Part shown: piece after piece, positions 19,980 to 39,200 of the stretch
How positions within the stretch are numbered: the first letter of the stretch is position 1
Layout of the letters: each line of letters begins with the position of its first letter
From: a virus
Direction: 5' to 3' (one strand)
DNA length: 39,300 nucleotides
UHGV virus genome: UHGV-0123126
Notes under the pieces: generated by a model
What the model was told of the DNA's origin: nothing
Database searches by the model: none
What the model saw: the letters and a program-made list of their open reading frames with translations, nothing else
Translations under genes and position numbers: made by a program

Positions 19980-20031
19980 TATTAGGCATAGATTCTTATA
20001 GGATCAAGAGTAAAAGTAACTCATTTTCAGC

Positions 20032-20064
20032 AATGATTCCATACATAGTAGGTATGGAATCATT
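20032..20064. repeat. Perfect 13-bp inverted repeat AATGATTCCATAC-(7 bp)-GTATGGAATCATT; lox/dif-like candidate core site
   Basis: 13-bp arms with 7-bp spacer, about 100 bp upstream of the tyrosine recombinase gene. Confidence 0.45.
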
Positions 20065-20143
20065 TTGACGTTGTTTTTTGAATTTTAAGGGAAACGGGAG
20101 TGAGTTTGGTGGGAATAAAAACGGCTCCTGTGAGCCGTTAAAA

Positions 20144-20389
20144 TCAGAGGGTGCTGACGTATGCAGCCAGTTCTGTGTATCCGCCAATCGGTTGGCCATC
20201 GATCAGCACTTGGGGGATAGTCTCTACCGGTTTACCAACAATTTCACTTAGTTTTTCCTTGTCGATACCGGCAGTGGTGATGTCGATGTACTCATAATCA
20301 CCGTAGCCATGTCCCTTTAGTTGCTTCGCCAGCTCGACCGCACGTTTGCAGTATGAGCAGTTATCTCGTCCGTAGATAGTGATCGTCAT
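20144..20389 (-). CDS. Glutaredoxin-like protein (CxxC thioredoxin fold)
   Basis: MTITIYGRDNCSYCKRAVELAK...; GAGG SD before the internal ATG; track ORF extended upstream. Confidence 0.75.
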   Translation of the reverse strand: MTITIYGRDNCSYCKRAVELAKQLKGHGYGDYEYIDITTAGIDKEKLSEIVGKPVETIPQVLIDGQPIGGYTELAAYVSTL

Positions 20390-20563
20390 TGTTACCTCAT
20401 AGAATTGATATGCAACTTTACTTACAAAGAAGATAGGTGTGTGCATACTTATCTTTACAGTCTGCATTATAAAGCTATTAAAGCCTCGATCAATCTATTA
20501 ATTAAGGCATTGTTTGGTTAACATTAGCCTAATATTTTATAGTTAGTAGAGTGAAATACATAC

Positions 20564-21826
20564 ATGCCTTTTTTAATTTTCATTATTATACTACTGCTCA
20601 CCGTCATTTTTTGGGATTGGGTTGTTTTAAATGGTCAAACTGTTGGAACATTGGCTACAGCATTTGCTTTTATAGCAACAGCATGGAATGCCTACGAAGC
20701 GAGAAAAAGTGCAAAAGCAGCTTTTTCAGCCCTTCAATTAACAACTGAATCATTGTTCGAAATGCGAAAGAGTGCATTTAAACAATGGTTTGATTCCTTA
20801 TTAAATCAACATGATGAGTTATGTCTTCTTGCAAAACAAATTATCGATAAACACAAAATTAATTTAAACAGCGATGAGTTACATAGACTATATTATCCAT
20901 TGGTAAGACAGCATGAGGTAATACAGTATGTGAAGCATATTATTAATATATTTGAGTATGTGGATGGTTCATTTTATATTGATGGGGAATGTCTCAAGGA
21001 AAAAAGAGCGTATGTGTCACAATTAATTTTTAAAATCCCACCTCAGATGAAGTTGATCATTGCTATCTTTGGATTAAAAATCGATTATTGTGAACATATT
21101 AATTCGGAAAAACTGTGTTGTTTATTGAATAAATATGATTTTTTCAATGATGAAATATTTTTTGATGATGCTTATTCAAATATGCCTTATCTGGATACAT
21201 TCATAAACCTTAGATTCAACAAAATATTCAAATCTCGAATGATAAATTATTTTGATAATATCATTAAAAGTTATTATGTTCCATCGGACGTTAAAAGGGA
21301 CTGGATGTTTCGACACCCAAAGCTCGTACCGTCGGTTCTTATGAATTATAAAACTCCTTGTTCTCCTATAATTAATGATTACTTTGAGAAGTTGCCTTTA
21401 CATGTAAGAAACTACTTTGAGGAACTACTTAAAACCGCGAATGATAGAGTTACTCATTTTGACGTTTACATCCCACGCCTTATTGGTTGTTCAATCGTGC
21501 AACATTACGAAGATGTGCCTTCCGAAAAAAACAGGTTAAATGACAGGAATGATGTAATAGCTATGGCTGAAGATTACATCGAGAAAAGAAAATCTAATCA
21601 ACTAGATTACATACTTGAAGATATATACTTTAAGAGTGACGAAGATATAATCCCAGGCCACCATTTAATTGTGGCATTTGATGACTATGAATATAAATTA
21701 GCACTAATTAAGATAAATGAAAATAAAGATAACGATAATCTTTTAAATCGAATTTATACTGAATCCAGTAGCATGGTTAATGAATATAAGCGCGAAATAT
21801 TAAAATTGGGCGACTATGCAAAGTAA
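20564..21826 (+). CDS. AT-rich membrane-anchored protein of unknown function (two N-terminal TM helices, about 370-aa cytoplasmic domain); candidate abortive-infection/defence protein
   Basis: 420-aa ORF with GC content clearly lower than flanking DNA; only long plus-strand gene here; own terminator. Confidence 0.65.
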   Translation: MPFLIFIIILLLTVIFWDWVVLNGQTVGTLATAFAFIATAWNAYEARKSAKAAFSALQLTTESLFEMRKSAFKQWFDSLLNQHDELCLLAKQIIDKHKINLNSDELHRLYYPLVRQHEVIQYVKHIINIFEYVDGSFYIDGECLKEKRAYVSQLIFKIPPQMKLIIAIFGLKIDYCEHINSEKLCCLLNKYDFFNDEIFFDDAYSNMPYLDTFINLRFNKIFKSRMINYFDNIIKSYYVPSDVKRDWMFRHPKLVPSVLMNYKTPCSPIINDYFEKLPLHVRNYFEELLKTANDRVTHFDVYIPRLIGCSIVQHYEDVPSEKNRLNDRNDVIAMAEDYIEKRKSNQLDYILEDIYFKSDEDIIPGHHLIVAFDDYEYKLALIKINENKDNDNLLNRIYTESSSMVNEYKREILKLGDYAK

Positions 21827-21844
21827 ATTGCACTGTTCAACAAA

Positions 21845-21871
21845 AAAGGGGCCGAAGCCCCTTTGAATTTT
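21845..21871 (+). terminator. Rho-independent terminator (AAAGGGGC-CGAA-GCCCCTTT)
   Basis: GC-rich hairpin then TTTGAATTTT, 20 nt after the AT-rich gene stop. Confidence 0.55.
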
Positions 21872-21938
21872 GCGCTGAAAAAAGTGTTGCTAGGATGTTA
21901 GCAAGCTATGGTTAAGAACGTCTGCCGTAATTATCTAT

Positions 21939-22016
21939 CACAGCGTTGAGCGGTCTGGTTTATGTTAGCGGAGTCTTAATCGAGTTGATTAAAAGGCCAA
22001 ACCGCTCAACGCTGTG
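21939..22016. repeat. 16-bp perfect inverted repeat CACAGCGTTGAGCGGT / ACCGCTCAACGCTGTG, 46-bp spacer with nested palindrome
   Basis: Arms at 21939..21954 and 22001..22016; directly abuts the 3' end of tRNA-Ser. Confidence 0.6.
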
Positions 22017-32500: not shown

Positions 32501-32858
32501 AACCTTTCTTCATCAACTCTCGTTTGATTTCATCGGTACGCATCGTGACATCGGCAGCGGTGATCGCCTCATTCAATTTCACGATGTCCTCGATTTCCTG
32601 CGGTGACTTCTCTGCCAGATGGAAAATGGCTGCTCGAATCACGTCAGAACGAGTGAACTTCTCGAAGCGAGGGATGAACTTCATCATCTCCAGCAGTTCG
32701 AAGTATTCGTCCTCCAGTGACATTGTGCGGCTTTTAATTTTCTCTTTGCCACGAGTCGGGCGTCCCTGTGGTCTGACTGGTTGGCGCAAAGGAGTTGTGT
32801 TCTTAGCCGGTGCATCAGGCTCTTTGCGCTTTGCTAGGTCACCCATTTTCATGGACAT
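32499..32858 (-). CDS. Small ParG-like partition/centromere-binding protein (basic N-terminal tail, possible ribbon-helix-helix)
   Basis: 119 aa, Lys/Arg/Pro-rich N-terminus then structured C-terminus; start overlaps parA stop (TAATG). Confidence 0.55.
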   Translation of the reverse strand: MSMKMGDLAKRKEPDAPAKNTTPLRQPVRPQGRPTRGKEKIKSRTMSLEDEYFELLEMMKFIPRFEKFTRSDVIRAAIFHLAEKSPQEIEDIVKLNEAITAADVTMRTDEIKRELMKKG

Positions 32859-33526
32859 TATTCTTCTTCCTCCAGACTCAACAGATAATCTACAAATTCT
32901 TCAAACTCGGCTTCCGCCTTTTTGTCGCGCTCGCTACCGGTCATTTCAAAGATAGAACGACCAGACTCTTCCGCATCATCATAGACGTTGCGGTTATATA
33001 GATTGACTGGCGCAGACTCGATGCCGAACGTCTCGACAATCTCTTTAGCCGCCAGAATGCGAGACACTTGTGATGGCAAAGCCGGGCACTGGTTCATGAC
33101 CGCGCGGACCTTCACTTTATCGTTTACATTGCGAACATTGTCGATAATAGGATCGATGTCACGTAAAGATTTCAAATCACGACGCTTAGGACGCAGCGGG
33201 ATAATGATAACGTCAGCCATCAGCATCGCTTGTCGCTGAATTTCGGAGTCGAAGCCACCAGCATCTACCACTACAAACTCAGCTCTACCCTGAAGCGATT
33301 TTAGGTGCTTAATGATGTCATCCTGAACGTATGCAAAAGGAATCAGCTCAAGGTCTTCGTTCTGTCGACGGTCTTCACACCAGCTCGTTGTCGTGCGCTG
33401 AATATCTATATCGGTAATATAAACCTTCTTCTTCTTTTTGACTTTCAGGCAAACGGCAATTTGCTGGGCAACGGTGGATTTGCCAGGCCCGCCCTTTGTG
33501 CCGCCAACCACAAAGATCTTGGTCAT
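32858..33526 (-). CDS. parA: ParA/Soj-family partition ATPase (deviant Walker A)
   Basis: VVGGTKGGPGKST deviant Walker A near N-terminus; 222 aa; followed by small basic protein. Confidence 0.85.
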   Translation of the reverse strand: MTKIFVVGGTKGGPGKSTVAQQIAVCLKVKKKKKVYITDIDIQRTTTSWCEDRRQNEDLELIPFAYVQDDIIKHLKSLQGRAEFVVVDAGGFDSEIQRQAMLMADVIIIPLRPKRRDLKSLRDIDPIIDNVRNVNDKVKVRAVMNQCPALPSQVSRILAAKEIVETFGIESAPVNLYNRNVYDDAEESGRSIFEMTGSERDKKAEAEFEEFVDYLLSLEEEE

Positions 33527-33844
33527 TGGAGAGTTCCCTTTGCGTATATAATTATCGTCTGAAACAACTTGTTTTCTTATATGTGATATAGCCTAAATGC
33601 CTACGGCTGCGGTGTAAAGGTTAAATGGTAGGTTGTGATTAACAATTGGCAATCATAGCTTGTATTTGTCTGTTGAAAAAAGTAACAATGACCTCTATAT
33701 TACAAGTACGGTGATATGCCGTACACAATTTGATAATGCACACGTAATGGGCTATAGCCTTTTAAAGTAATTTTTGAGTCGAAAACTCAGTTTGAACAGA
33801 GGAGATTGATGGCCTTCCTACATCACGGCCATCAGGAGGAATAC

Positions 33845-34114
33845 ATGTCAGCACTAAAAAAGCAGCGCATCGATTTGAGATTAACCGATGACGATAAAAG
33901 CATCATCGAGGAAGCTGCCGCAATGTCTAACCAGAGCATTACTCAGTTTATGGTTAGCAGTGCATCTGAACGTGCCGTGAAAGTTATAGAGCAACACCGT
34001 AGACTAGTTCTGAATGAAGAATCCTGGAATCTGGTTATGGACGCTATAAGCAATCCTCCGGCACCGAACGACAAGCTGAAACGAGCTGCTGATCGTCTGA
34101 AAAGCATGGAGTAG
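33845..34114 (+). CDS. TacA-type (DUF1778-like) antitoxin of a GNAT toxin-antitoxin pair
   Basis: 89 aa from ATG 33845 with AGGAGGA SD; MSALKKQRIDLRLTDDDKSIIEEAA...; 7 nt before the GNAT toxin gene. Confidence 0.8.
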   Translation: MSALKKQRIDLRLTDDDKSIIEEAAAMSNQSITQFMVSSASERAVKVIEQHRRLVLNEESWNLVMDAISNPPAPNDKLKRAADRLKSME

Positions 34115-34121
34115 TTTACTC

Positions 34122-34643
34122 GTGAGCAATACAACGATAGAGATTTTCTCTGGAGAGAAAGATTATGATCTAAACGGTTTTGATTGCGGCGAAGAGTCAC
34201 TAAACGCCTTTTTAGCCAACCACTTAAAAAGGCAGCATGAGGGAAAAATTCTTCGTGCTTATGTGCTTTGCACTCAAGAAGAAAGGCCAAAAGTGTTAGG
34301 ATATTACACTTTGTCAGGTAGTTGTTTTGAAAAGGAGTCCTTACCTTCAAGAAGCAAACAAAAGAAGGTTCCTTATCGGAATGTTCCAAGTGTTACTTTG
34401 GGTAGGCTGGCTTTGGACAAGTCCCTTCAAGGTCAAGGATTTGGCTCAATGCTTGTAACACATGCAATGCGCGTTGTGTACAATGCATCTCTTGCTGTAG
34501 GCATTCATGGACTTTTCGTTGAGGCGTTAAATGACAAAGCCAAGGCGTTTTATAAAAGTTTAGGCTTTATCCAGCTGGTTGGTAACAACGAGCGTTCTTT
34601 GTTCTATCCTACAAAATCTATCGAAAAATTGTTCGAAGAATAA
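34122..34643 (+). CDS. GNAT-family acetyltransferase toxin (TacT/AtaT/KacT-like)
   Basis: 173 aa, GTG start; FDCGEESLNAFL, ILRAYVLC, YYTLSGSCF, QGQGFGSMLV match AtaT-type toxins as recalled from memory. Confidence 0.85.
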   Translation: MSNTTIEIFSGEKDYDLNGFDCGEESLNAFLANHLKRQHEGKILRAYVLCTQEERPKVLGYYTLSGSCFEKESLPSRSKQKKVPYRNVPSVTLGRLALDKSLQGQGFGSMLVTHAMRVVYNASLAVGIHGLFVEALNDKAKAFYKSLGFIQLVGNNERSLFYPTKSIEKLFEE

Positions 34644-34675
34644 TGTGTTCCCCTCATTTGAGGGGAACTTCGACA

Positions 34676-34891
34676 TCACCAACCACAAACCCTCTCTCCC
34701 ATCGTATTGTGAAAAAGGATTTGGCGTTCGGTTTCTTCAGTCATTACATCATTATTGCTGATATAGATAGGCTCAGCCCCATCGCAGAACAACACGCTGG
34801 CTGTTTGTGGTTTAATGACGCACCCACTTATCATACAACTCACGATGAACGGCAGAAGCATCTTTCTGACGTATTTTACTGCTCGTCTCAT
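34676..34891 (-). CDS. Putative o-spanin (outer-membrane lipoprotein, Rz1-like), overlapping the i-spanin
   Basis: Lipobox ISGC after hydrophobic segment; embedded in an alternate frame overlapping the 3' end of 34812..35063. Confidence 0.5.
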   Translation of the reverse strand: MRRAVKYVRKMLLPFIVSCMISGCVIKPQTASVLFCDGAEPIYISNNDVMTEETERQILFHNTMGERVCGW

Positions 34892-35063
34892 TCACCACTT
34901 TCACTGTGTTTTGAAGTCGTTTTCTGTCTTCCTGTTTTGCCTTCTCTTCCATTGCTCGTCGCGCCGCATTCCCGCCCATCGTGTAAGCGCCGACAAGAAC
35001 GAAAAGAACGGCAGCCAGCGTAATCAAAGCAACTTTTAGCTTTGTCATCAGGCTGCCTAGCAT
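34812..35063 (-). CDS. Putative i-spanin (Rz-like: N-terminal TM helix plus charged coiled-coil)
   Basis: 83 aa; TM segment VALITLAAVLFVLVGAY then Lys/Glu/Arg-rich region. Confidence 0.5.
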   Translation of the reverse strand: MLGSLMTKLKVALITLAAVLFVLVGAYTMGGNAARRAMEEKAKQEDRKRLQNTVKVVNETSSKIRQKDASAVHRELYDKWVRH

Positions 35064-35064
35064 A

Positions 35065-35757
35065 TTAGACCATCCCTTTCTGGTGTTTTCTTACCTGCGA
35101 CCAGGCAATGAATCCTGCCACAACAATAGTGGCAATACCGAAGATGATGCGTACTGTATCCCCGCTAGAGATATGACCTTGTGCTTTATCCATAGCAGCG
35201 GAAACCTGCGGCATAACATCGGCCAGCTGCGCCAGACCAATACCTGCTGTAACAGTTGCGCCTGCAGTTTCTTTAGTTACAGGAACAGCCTTCACGGTTT
35301 TCACCGGCTTAACAACGCCAGCTCGACGCAGACCTTCCTCAATAACTTCTGCCGCATACCAGGTGTTCAGCGTTTTTAGCGGGCCTCGGCCATTCTCGTG
35401 GCGAATGATTGCCTCAACCAAAGGTCGAAGGATGTCGTAATCATGCAGATCGATGATCATGTCTGCGGTTACACCAACGGCTTTAGACACCTCATTAATG
35501 TAGGCGTCAGTATTGTTTTCATTCGGCGGTGCCCAGCGTTCAATAACTTCACGAATGGTATCGATACTTGTGCCGTCTTTTGCGCGACGTTTATCGTGGT
35601 AGGTAATTAGAGTCACCGCCAGCGCACGAATCCCCCAAACAGGGTCTTTAAACGTGCAAAAGCGCGGTTCGTCTGGATTCGCAACCAGACCTTGCCACGG
35701 TGATCCTTTATCAAGATTACCGGGGTTATTATTACGAATGCCTCTCGGAGTCTTCAT
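35065..35757 (-). CDS. Putative endolysin-like protein with C-terminal TM anchor (catalytic class not recognised)
   Basis: Position between membrane protein and spanins; motif PRGIRNNNPGNL; ATG at 35755..35757 has AGGAG SD (track ORF extends to 35784). Confidence 0.4.
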   Translation of the reverse strand: MKTPRGIRNNNPGNLDKGSPWQGLVANPDEPRFCTFKDPVWGIRALAVTLITYHDKRRAKDGTSIDTIREVIERWAPPNENNTDAYINEVSKAVGVTADMIIDLHDYDILRPLVEAIIRHENGRGPLKTLNTWYAAEVIEEGLRRAGVVKPVKTVKAVPVTKETAGATVTAGIGLAQLADVMPQVSAAMDKAQGHISSGDTVRIIFGIATIVVAGFIAWSQVRKHQKGMV

Positions 35758-35770
35758 CCTTGATCTCCTG

Positions 35771-36094
35771 TTATTGCAGTCCACTTTTTACGCCATACGC
35801 GGCTAACCCCAAAAGCAGTGCGGTAATAATGAACGACGTTATTTTAGAAACAATGCCGCCAAAGAACCCACTTGAGATGGAATCTAACCGGTTAAGGAGT
35901 TTGTCCAGATTGGAGTGTTGAATACTATGTTGCGCCGGGGTCATATCACCAAAGTAGGTTTTCAGCTGATCATTGACCTCCTGGCCAATTTCTTCACGTA
36001 GCTCTTTACCTAATTTGCCAACAACCTCCCGAGCAACGATCGCGGCAATACGCTCAACTTGCTCTGTTGTAACGCCCGCCATCTCGTTCGACAT
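35771..36094 (-). CDS. C-terminally anchored membrane protein, possible holin-like lysis component
   Basis: Single TM helix near C-terminus; GGAGG SD before the internal ATG at 36092..36094 (track ORF starts at 36106). Confidence 0.35.
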   Translation of the reverse strand: MSNEMAGVTTEQVERIAAIVAREVVGKLGKELREEIGQEVNDQLKTYFGDMTPAQHSIQHSNLDKLLNRLDSISSGFFGGIVSKITSFIITALLLGLAAYGVKSGLQ

Positions 36095-36296
36095 GTTTTC
36101 CTCCATGAAAAGTCAAATCGGGATGGCGGATTTATATCACACTTCTCCTTTCAATTATAGGTATATACTTACCTATCTATGTATATACCGTTTAACGGCT
36201 GTTCAAATTCGTATCTAGTAACTCACTAATATATCCCTATGATTGCGGCTGTGAGATCGCATTTTAAACCTCACAGCCATATAAATAATGTCTAAA

Positions 36297-39200
36297 TCAG
36301 TTACTTGTTGCCCCAACAGTACCTGCAAATTTCAGCCATTGACCTGACGGACTTCTATTACTACGGTAGTGATAAACGAGGATTGCGTTTGTAACTCCAC
36401 CGTAGTCAGCTTTATGTGACGTTGTTAAACGAATTGTATAATCACCGTTAGGTAGATTAAAAACTTCGATTATAGATTCTGCTAATTCTACAGCACCAAA
36501 TCCCGTTATATTGTTGATACTGCCAGCATTGAATCCCATAGCATCGCCAAAGCCAATCCAATAACTTTTGCTAAACGCCCCATTTGATTTTAGGTGGCTA
36601 ATGAATGTGGACAAACTCATGCCCATATCCCCACCTGAAACAGAGGAAGTTCGCACAGTCATGCTTGGAAGAGCACTGCTCTTCACATAGGAACTTAGAA
36701 GGTTTGTTACCTCTGTTTTCGTATAGGCATTAAGGTTAGCCGCAGTCAAAGTAATATCGGCAGAGCCATCAAACGCCACACCAGCAATTTTCCTTGCTGT
36801 CTGCAATTTTGTGGCGGTTGCGGCATTACCAGTAGTGTTCTGGTTCCCATCTGCATTCACACCTGGGATGCTGTCTTTTTTAGTATATATCTGAGTCCAG
36901 TCCTCTTCGAACCCATAGCCATCACGTGATGAACGGTAATACAATCCACCATTTTTATAATGCGCTCGGATTTGGAGAGTCCGACAACTACCTACGCCTG
37001 TATAAAAATTTGCAACGATATAAGAATCCCCGGAGCGTGTAACATTATACGCACCTGATTCGGCATTCCACGGGACCGCACCACTAGCATCGGCATAAGT
37101 TCCAGTAGCGCGTCGAGCAAAAGCAGATACATTTGCAGCTGTTAGTGTTATATCAGCAGAACCATCAAAAGCCACGCCACTTATTTTTCTGGCAGTTTGT
37201 AACTTTGTAGCCGTAGATGCATTACCGTTCAAACTACCATTGATGCCGCCAGTAACATTGAGTCCATTACCAATGGACACAGCACCGCTGGTATTGTTAA
37301 TTGTAATCGGTCGCAAACCGTTCCATGAACCTAATGTGTCTCCTGATGCTGTTAGCATGAAATATGTGTTCGACCCATCATTACGGATAAAGAACCCAAA
37401 GCTACCGTAAGCAATGCGGAAACCATTTGCATATTTTGAAACGATCTCACCAGAAGACGTTAACCCTCCAGATAATGTGCCACCTGAAAGCGGTAATGCG
37501 CCGACATCCGTGGCGGTCGGTTTAATGTGCGAACTGTAAATGACATATACCGTTCCATCAGTAAGACCAGTTGGTTTATTCGCTGTATAAGTTGGTGATG
37601 TATGAATCGTTACGCTGGCGTTACTGGTATAATCCCACTGAATATTAACACCTGTGGCGTAATTACCTATTTCAACATAAACATCATAGGTATCACCGGA
37701 TGTATTCACCCATGCAAAATTAGTAAATCCAACCGATGTCCGTCGCCATAATGCACCAGTAATACCCTTTGGATTTCCATTTCCGGCACGCAGAACCAGC
37801 TCAGAGATGCCTGCTTGATGCGGGGAGCCAACGTTATACCCTGCACCACCAATCAGGCTTATGTAAACCACGGAACTGGCCTGTGGCATGGTTACAGTTG
37901 CCAGCTTGAACCATCCGGCACCACCAATAAAAGACATTGTTGCTGAGTTGATCGTGCCTATAGACCTTGGAGTTAGCTCAATGTTTTTAGAACCGTCAAA
38001 CGACACCCCATTAATAGTACGCGCAGTCTGCAACTTCGTAGCAGTAGCCGCATTACCTGTTGTATTCTGATTACCAGTCGTATTAACACCTGGCAAATTA
38101 ATATTTGCAGTACCATCAAAGCTCACGCCGCCGATAGTTCTTGCCGTCTGTAGTTTTGTAGCAGTTGCAGCATTACCAGTGGTGTTCTGATTACCCGTAG
38201 TGTTTACACCTGGAAGGTTAATATTTGCAGAACCGTCGAAAACAACTCCACCGATAGATCTTGCCGTCTGTAATTTCGTTGCTGTAGCAGCATTTCCTGA
38301 AAGACTTGAAATAAATGGATGTGAACAGTAATAACCTCGTCCATTTTTAAAGTCCAAAATTATCTGTGCATTCGTACTTTCTGATAAAGGATCAGTTGCC
38401 CCCCACTTATAAGTGGTTTGACCAACTGCATAATCAGCCGTTGGAACAATCACATTTAATCCTTCCTCAGCAAAAATCTGGATAGGGAATGCTCTTGTCT
38501 CAACGTAAAATACACTACACAAATCATCATCTTTCACGCTTGCGATAATCGAGTGTATAGATCGTTCAACGGTTGAATATATTGAGAAAAAACCAACAGC
38601 ATATGAACCGCGATCAGACCAACCGCCCGGCATAACAAAACCATTAAACTCACAATTATTCATAGCGTATCCGCCAGCTGAGGAATAAGTGGTGATAACC
38701 ACTCGTGAGGCTAATTCATCTGTGCCACCACCAGTTCGGCGAAAGACTACAGGATACCACTTACCGCTTACTGCATTTGCAGGAGCAGAGAAAGTGTATT
38801 TTCGCATCCCCTTTTTCTTATCCACTTCACCTTTGCTGTAAACATTAATGTTATTCAGGAAGCGGCCCTTGTCGGGGATATCAGCACCATTCTGATCCTT
38901 CTGTAGTCGTTTTTCAGCATTATCATATGCGGTCTTAACTGCTTTTGGTGTCGCGGCTAAAGATTCACTGGTGCTGTCGACAGCACTGCTAAGTTTCACA
39001 ACACCTTTGGTGGTAAGGCTTGCATCTTCCATCGCAACTGCACCGGCAATCTCTTCAGCACGATCAGCAGCAGCTTCCGCACGGGTCGCAGCGGATTCAG
39101 CAGCAGTTTTGCTCTGAGATGCTGCCGTCGCACTGCCTGCCGCCTCTGTTGCTTTCGTGGATGCTGTCGTGGCGCTGCCCTTCGCTGCGGACGCTTGTCT

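Follow-up and report, generated by a model that had tools for sequence, protein, structure and literature searches.

A lysis cassette with a C-terminally anchored endolysin of the Enc34/M4Lys type and a tail-anchored phrog_5093 protein on an SSU5-like phage-plasmid

The window analyzed here, a stretch of 39,300 nucleotides of viral DNA (UHGV-0123126), covers part of a phage-plasmid of Enterobacteriaceae that is SSU5-like, and carries a known, already annotated lysis module built around an endolysin type that has been crystallized. Four open reading frames on the minus strand (Table 1) very probably constitute the late lysis cassette of this element, transcribed after the tail-fiber gene and bringing about host lysis in three steps. 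All four were recovered from the open reading frame list, and the order proposed for them in the initial annotation (membrane protein, endolysin, i-spanin and o-spanin) is borne out both by matches to PHROG profiles (phrog_5093 for the 107-aa membrane protein, E 1.9e-68; phrog_873 "endolysin" for the 230-aa protein, E 6.5e-89; phrog_1026 "Rz-like spanin" for the i-spanin, E 7e-25; phrog_1275 "Rz-like spanin" for the o-spanin, E 1.3e-24) and by the records of Escherichia phage Cyrano and Salmonella phage SSU5, in which the four orthologues are labeled holin ("putative holin" in SSU5), endolysin, Rz and Rz1. Across the 1.8-kb cassette region, nucleotide identity is 99.2% to Cyrano and 82% to SSU5. 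The four-gene order is kept in relatives down to 63 to 68% identity, and the cassette is carried by 403 PLSDB plasmids and by 250 of the 5426 complete E. coli genomes, in every case on plasmids of ca. 108 to 114 kb. Given the strong PHROG E-values, the conserved gene order and the wide occurrence on plasmids, this is not a chance arrangement.

Table 1. Features of the lysis cassette and its surroundings in the 39,300-nucleotide window
Feature	Coordinates	Strand	Remarks
911-aa tail-fiber gene	39032..36297	minus	upstream of the four-ORF cassette
107-aa tail-anchored membrane protein	36094..35771	minus	phrog_5093; putative holin or holin partner
230-aa endolysin	35757..35065	minus	Enc34/M4Lys type
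Catalytic domain of the endolysin, residues 1 to ~150	35308-35757	minus	N-terminal part
Codon of Glu121 (RHENG motif)	35395..35397	minus	equivalent of catalytic Glu131 of Enc34 ORF39
83-aa i-spanin (Rz-like)	35063..34812	minus
71-aa o-spanin precursor (Rz1-like)	34891..34676	minus	frame differs from that of the i-spanin
Terminator-like GC-rich hairpin	34668..34647	minus	9-bp stem, 4-nt loop; pattern match only

The genes flanking the cassette are plasmid-like and comprise ParA and a GNAT-toxin/antitoxin pair. The terminator-like hairpin lies directly 3' of the o-spanin stop codon and separates the cassette from the GNAT-toxin gene, which converges on it, in a region where the number of hairpins equals the shuffle expectation and is thus at chance level. 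Similarly, a promoter scan upstream of the 107-aa gene returned a single weak match at chance level. On plasmids, the cassette genes carry the RefSeq label "hypothetical protein". Scans of all four proteins against Pfam and NCBIfam yielded sub-threshold noise only, and the absence of a model for the catalytic domain from these libraries accounts for the "hypothetical" calls made by PGAP on hundreds of clinical Enterobacteriaceae plasmids. These labels, together with the prediction that the plasmids are non-mobilizable, could be taken to mean that the cassette is an inactive remnant that is passively plasmid-borne. We consider this scarcely credible, because the four open reading frames are intact and preceded by ribosome-binding sites, both the lipobox and the residues of the active site have been conserved, and near-identical cassettes are found in Cyrano and SSU5, which are phages that form plaques.

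The 230-aa protein (beginning MKTPRGIRNNNPGNL) is, as judged from its sequence, an endolysin of the Enc34/M4Lys type (PHA02564), with its activity predicted by homology. Its gene has an AGGAG Shine-Dalgarno sequence 7 nt upstream, while a GTG at 35784 comes without a ribosome-binding site. [quoted passage not shown] E121, W75 and Y86 align with Glu131, Trp79 and Tyr95 of the Enc34 enzyme and are invariant in 34 homologues. An AlphaFold model built on these 34 homologues reaches a pLDDT of ~90 in the catalytic domain and falls below 50 in residues 154-201. A phi6-P5-like catalytic domain, as suggested by a "protein P5" label in tblastn, was set aside once 7Q47 matched directly.

Downstream of the catalytic domain, a Lys-rich linker leads to two hydrophobic helices. 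Hydropathy analysis places a weaker, Ala/Gly/Thr-rich helix at residues ~164-182 (maximal KD 1.21, below a strict transmembrane threshold) and a strong transmembrane segment at ~201-221 (KD 2.19), which is followed by the basic tail RKHQKGMV. Eleven positions of this membrane domain (P159, T161, E163, A167, G174, Q177, P183, A188, S198, A218 and Q221) are invariant in the 34 homologues; since the domain is thus conserved in sequence and not merely hydrophobic, it fits a specific function. The earlier description of the first two cassette proteins as C-terminally anchored in a non-textbook manner agrees with hydropathy. That description had also set the endolysin apart from textbook topologies; this is correct, but anchoring at the C-terminus has already been published as the distinguishing trait of the Enc34/M4Lys type.

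By tblastn, the catalytic domain was detected in 793 phage records and the full-length protein in only 182 of them, with Chi-like phages of Salmonella, Providencia and Proteus as well as SSU5-like elements as examples among the matches listed. The other records contain only the first ~125 to 150 residues, inside virion, core or tape-measure proteins. Since the same catalytic domain is found in T7-like internal virion or core proteins, in tape-measure and head proteins and in Gp29 of the phage E1004 core (PDB 9VVP), the 230-aa protein might be regarded as a virion-associated peptidoglycan hydrolase used for entry and not as a release endolysin. This is very unlikely, because the protein is free-standing, carries a membrane domain and is encoded between a holin-like gene and spanins, because its full-length homologues in Chi-like phages belong to a lysis cassette and lyse cells from within, and because none of the virion-protein matches extends beyond the N-terminal part. 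More than 100 protein-database clusters of full-length relatives (56 to 100% identity) come from Cronobacter, Klebsiella, Xenorhabdus, Photorhabdus, Providencia, Pasteurella and Alcaligenaceae. The architecture of the Enc34 endolysin has been stated to be apparently limited to Chivirus and some related viruses (PMC8943055); as SSU5-like elements and many other lineages carry it, the C-terminally anchored endolysin is much more widespread than that.

A literature search turned up no work on the function of the holin or the endolysin of SSU5, and the evidence for activity comes from homologues that are 55 to 59% identical and not from SSU5-type proteins themselves. In turbidity assays, Enc34 ORF39, with catalytic Glu131 plus Trp79 and Tyr95, degraded the murein of Gram-negative bacteria (Cernooka et al. 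2022, PMC8943055); its derivative ORF39deltaC was muralytic, while toxicity was seen with the full-length protein only (PMC8943055). For M4Lys (BSPM4), N-acetylglucosaminidase products were detected (Bai et al. 2020, PMC7143992). M4Lys alone lyses E. coli, azide does not block this lysis, and deletion of the C-terminal transmembrane domain (TMD) abolishes it; the membrane domain is described as required for lysis and sufficient for holin- and Sec-independence (PMC7143992). Two C-terminal TMDs with an N-in/C-in topology were predicted for the Siskin endolysin (PMC6498227), though published topology predictions for this endolysin type disagree between N-out and N-in (PMC7143992, PMC6498227).

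The 107-aa protein encoded directly upstream is the only part of the cassette without an existing explanation. Its gene starts at an ATG at 36094 that is preceded by GGAGGA at a distance of 5 nt, and it ends 14 nt before the endolysin start; an alternative in-frame ATG at 36106 would yield 111 aa. A dual-start motif (M1/M5, MSNEM) was considered and rejected, as the second methionine is not conserved among homologues. Hydropathy reveals a single transmembrane segment at residues ~81-102 and only five residues beyond it (KSGLQ), so that it lacks the hydrophilic, strongly charged tail in which holins typically end. For this protein as for the endolysin, positive-inside charges favor an N-out/C-in topology, whereas the absence of a signal sequence favors N-in. 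In the basic sense of the term, the protein nevertheless resembles a holin, being small, having at least one TMD and being encoded next to the endolysin. Its sole PHROG match, phrog_5093, is annotated as "unknown function"; Pfam and NCBIfam gave no hit, and these searches linked it to no described holin family. A search of the PDB with the phrog_5093 profile returned no relative, a scan of viral contigs with profile P0036 found nothing, and the AlphaFold model, which shows only four helices at a pLDDT of 48, is of poor quality. Assignment to the Chi-type holins was rejected, as the corresponding protein of phage SPN19 (112 aa) has its transmembrane segment near the N-terminus and profile-profile comparison with hhalign gives a probability of 0.8%, i.e., no relation.

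The family is rare: when 1.84 billion representative proteins were searched exhaustively with a profile, 60 phrog_5093 relatives were recovered at E <= 1e-3, of which nearly all full-length ones measure ~94 to 143 aa, the remainder being short fragments and two long multi-match proteins. Alignment of 29 distant members defines the motif FGDMTxxQHxxQHxR..LL..LD..S.NFWG, in which G49, H56 and H60 are invariant. In each member, the only hydrophobic segment lies at the very C-terminus and is followed by a tail of 1 to 14 residues (median 9) that mostly has a charge of +1, and the net charge of the N-terminal domain ranges from 0 to -7. Among deposited phages, tblastn detected the protein in 12 records, all of them SSU5-like, even with distant members as queries; for this reason, genomic contexts beyond SSU5-like elements were drawn from metagenome contigs.

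In the eight informative places, the phrog_5093 gene comes after tail-fiber genes or heads a lysis cassette. At two SSU5-like loci (L004 and L007) it is followed by an Enc34-type endolysin, and at L015 by a 40%-identical endolysin copy that has kept the TMD and lost the catalytic signature. Elsewhere it lies upstream of Peptidase_M15_3 endolysins (L012-14 and L020) or of a GH108+PG_binding_3 endolysin (L019), or it precedes a holin of phrog_8226 with 3 to 4 transmembrane segments and a phrog_669 endolysin (L011) or a two-TM protein of 72 aa and a lipoprotein (L010). Because the family is placed with at least four unrelated endolysin types, a role in lysis, as a holin or as the partner of one, is strongly argued. 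From its position, the chances that the 107-aa protein is itself the holin appear about even; that it is a regulator or partner is a tentative second reading, and the rest of the probability falls to other roles.

The contexts also bear on how these two readings compare. On those contigs that are not cut short and encode a soluble or SAR-like endolysin (L010, L011, L012 and L019), another small transmembrane protein is located nearby, with those at L012 and L019 flanking the endolysin, so that phrog_5093 is never the sole possible hole-former in the contexts examined; because such a small transmembrane protein accompanies endolysins without a TMD of their own, the neighborhoods fit a holin as well as they fit an antiholin or regulator. 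It is possible, though we would not bet on it, that the phrog_5093 protein is an antiholin or regulator of lysis timing, that in SSU5-type cassettes the two-helix domain of the endolysin makes a holin-like membrane lesion, and that a separate multi-TM holin does so in other cassettes. Lysis by M4Lys alone is consistent with this, as are the bacteriostatic effect of its TMD alone and the slight delay of lysis upon co-expression of the upstream gene (PMC7143992). The separate phrog_8226 holin at L011, the 72-aa protein at L010 and the small transmembrane proteins beside the endolysins of L012 and L019 point the same way, and the invariant His56 and His60 suggest sensing or binding and not a generic pore helix. 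However, the upstream gene tested with M4Lys encodes the Chi-type protein, which is unrelated to phrog_5093, and, as the authors of the Enc34 study pointed out, the lysis that M4Lys causes without a holin may be an artefact of over-expression (PMC8943055). Furthermore, the phrog_5093 gene at L020 and at L012 either overlaps the gene of a soluble M15 endolysin or lies immediately next to it, where a holin gene is canonically found.

It is conceivable, though we propose it only tentatively, that phrog_5093 represents a new class of lysis proteins: tail-anchored, with a single transmembrane segment, an acidic N-terminal domain of ~75 to 110 aa and a juxtamembrane G-x6-H-x3-H motif. Such a protein could be a holin of undescribed topology, or it could be dedicated to triggering or regulating other holins and endolysins that are anchored in the membrane.

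The cassette ends with a two-component spanin pair, composed of an i-spanin with a TMD and a periplasmic domain and an o-spanin with a lipoprotein signal. By hydropathy, the i-spanin has an N-terminal transmembrane segment at residues ~8-28, followed by a charged periplasmic segment of ~55 aa without cysteines; it is 41% identical to its L004 orthologue. The o-spanin has a signal peptide with the lipobox ISG|C, in which the cysteine is Cys24 (codon at 34820-34822) and position +2 is Val and not Asp; this lipobox is shared by five relatives. It is homologous to the Chi/Enc34 o-spanin, and its core CVIKP..FCD..PIY..MTEETERQIL..C.W and three cysteines are kept in SSU5, L004, L007 and the Chi-like phage SPN19. 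While the initial annotation was right about an i-spanin and an o-spanin with lipobox, its view of them as an embedded Rz/Rz1 pair has to be revised: the two genes have only 80 nt in common, and the o-spanin gene extends 136 nt past the stop of the i-spanin, so that the architecture is overlapped (P2-like). The same arrangement is found in L004, L007 and SPN19, and the spanin genes of Enc34 overlap as well (PMC8943055). In the available part of the survey by Kongari et al. (2018), the SSU5 o-spanin belongs to the Chi family and the SSU5 i-spanin is a singleton, and SSU5 apparently stands among the overlapped systems, given that its table entry precedes the "Separated" heading. We note that the 39-aa Rz1 annotated in Cyrano begins beyond Rz, so far downstream that the lipobox region is left out.

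Taken together, lysis by this cassette would proceed as follows. The 107-aa phrog_5093 protein would first build up in the inner membrane and serve as the timing or hole-forming component, either as a holin or as a partner or regulator of the membrane domain of the endolysin. [quoted passage not shown] Its conserved C-terminal two-helix domain would keep the enzyme at the inner membrane until, upon triggering, it gains access to the murein. Finally, the overlapped spanin pair, related to that of Chi-like phages, would be expected from its family membership to disrupt the outer membrane.

As a discovery the cassette carries little weight, given that it has been annotated in SSU5 and Cyrano and that the endolysin type has been crystallized and assayed. 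What stands out is the phrog_5093 protein as a member of an unstudied family tied to lysis cassettes. The window adds one more case to the question of how endolysins with a C-terminal anchor get to the murein and does not answer it, but inducible SSU5-like phage-plasmids in E. coli K-12 would lend themselves to studying the way in which the inner membrane is crossed or breached by such enzymes. If phrog_5093 indeed forms a new class, its members together with the SSU5-type endolysin could show this route.

The closest known counterparts of the endolysin are Enc34 ORF39, M4Lys and the Siskin endolysin, with the same domain order and length and 55 to 59% identity over the whole length including the membrane domain. 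In Chi-like siphophages, Enc34-type endolysins occupy the same slot, with a small membrane protein encoded before them and the spanins after them; however, the element studied here is a phage-plasmid of ca. 108 kb and not a virulent siphophage, and its upstream membrane protein is from an unrelated family. Orthologous cassettes with identical gene order and annotated functions are those of SSU5 (SSU5_026-030) and Cyrano (CYRAN_22-25), though SSU5 has four extra genes (an adhesin, two membrane proteins and Cor) between tail fiber and holin. The SAR endolysins that work with pinholins, such as P1 Lyz and R21 of phage 21, are likewise tethered to the inner membrane via a weakly hydrophobic, Gly/Ala-rich helix, and there, as here, lysis is possible without a large-hole holin. 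Yet the SAR anchor is N-terminal and a Sec signal, whereas the anchor found here is C-terminal and two-helical and lysis by M4Lys is insensitive to azide. The spanins are overlapped like LysB/LysC of P2 and those of Enc34, in contrast to the embedded Rz/Rz1 of lambda, and differ from the P2 and lambda spanins in that the i-spanin is short (83 aa) and without cysteine while the o-spanin has two periplasmic cysteines. Lastly, T of phage T4 (class III) and the proposed "class IV" holin of Chi and Siskin resemble the phrog_5093 protein in having one TMD and one large soluble domain and in being encoded directly upstream of the endolysin, but the TMD of T4 T and of the Chi-type protein is near the N-terminus, whereas that of phrog_5093 is at the extreme C-terminus.

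Across 250 E. coli genomes, RefSeq/PGAP names the genes of the lysis cassette (window 34676-36106) "hypothetical protein", which we attribute to the lack of a Pfam or NCBIfam model for the Enc34-type endolysin domain despite its solved structure (7Q47). In Escherichia phage Cyrano, the Rz1 coding sequence is annotated with a start downstream of Rz and hence leaves the lipobox region outside.

Among metagenomic contigs with homologues of phrog_5093, a putative holin or holin-partner family, L015 encodes an endolysin homologue whose gene neighbours are a phrog_5093 member and one resembling i-spanins. This homologue retains the conserved C-terminal membrane domain and has lost the catalytic signature (VMYNG stands in place of RHENG, and ERWAPP is missing); it may be a catalytically dead "endolysin" reduced to its transmembrane domain. 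On L019, the gene directly upstream of the phrog_5093 homologue encodes a second, unrelated small tail-anchored protein, and the endolysin of this cassette is a GH108 enzyme.

Coordinates of features in and around the lysis cassettes
Feature	Location	Strand	Remarks
ParA partition gene	window 32858-33526	-	
Ribbon-helix-helix-like antitoxin and GNAT (KacT/TacT-like) acetyltransferase toxin pair	window 33806-34643	+	
GC-rich hairpin, 9-bp	window 34647-34668		exactly between o-spanin and GNAT-toxin stop codons (convergent genes)
Tail-fibre protein, 911 aa	window 36297-39032	-	
Cyrano Rz1 CDS, 39 aa	L001 4177-4296		
Endolysin homologue, 231 aa	L015:3368-4063		40% identity to the window's endolysin
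Tail-anchored protein, 71 aa	L019:2683-2898		acidic N-terminus, TM at residues 49-71

Plasmid-maintenance genes lie immediately beside the late phage genes, with the toxin-antitoxin pair convergent with the lysis cassette and the ParA gene adjoining the pair. The hairpin between the convergent genes could be a bidirectional terminator common to the o-spanin and GNAT-toxin genes. Elsewhere, two 1-kb windows form a low-GC island at window 20001-22000 (GC 0.37 and 0.33), the rest of the window lying at about 0.42-0.54.

Upstream of the cassette, a GNA(A/S)TATKLQTAR...GV.FDG motif occurs five times in the tail-fibre protein, which the Cyrano annotation describes as P1 S-like. In Salmonella phage SSU5, four additional genes (an adhesin, two membrane proteins and Cor) separate the fibre from the holin, whereas these are missing in the window.
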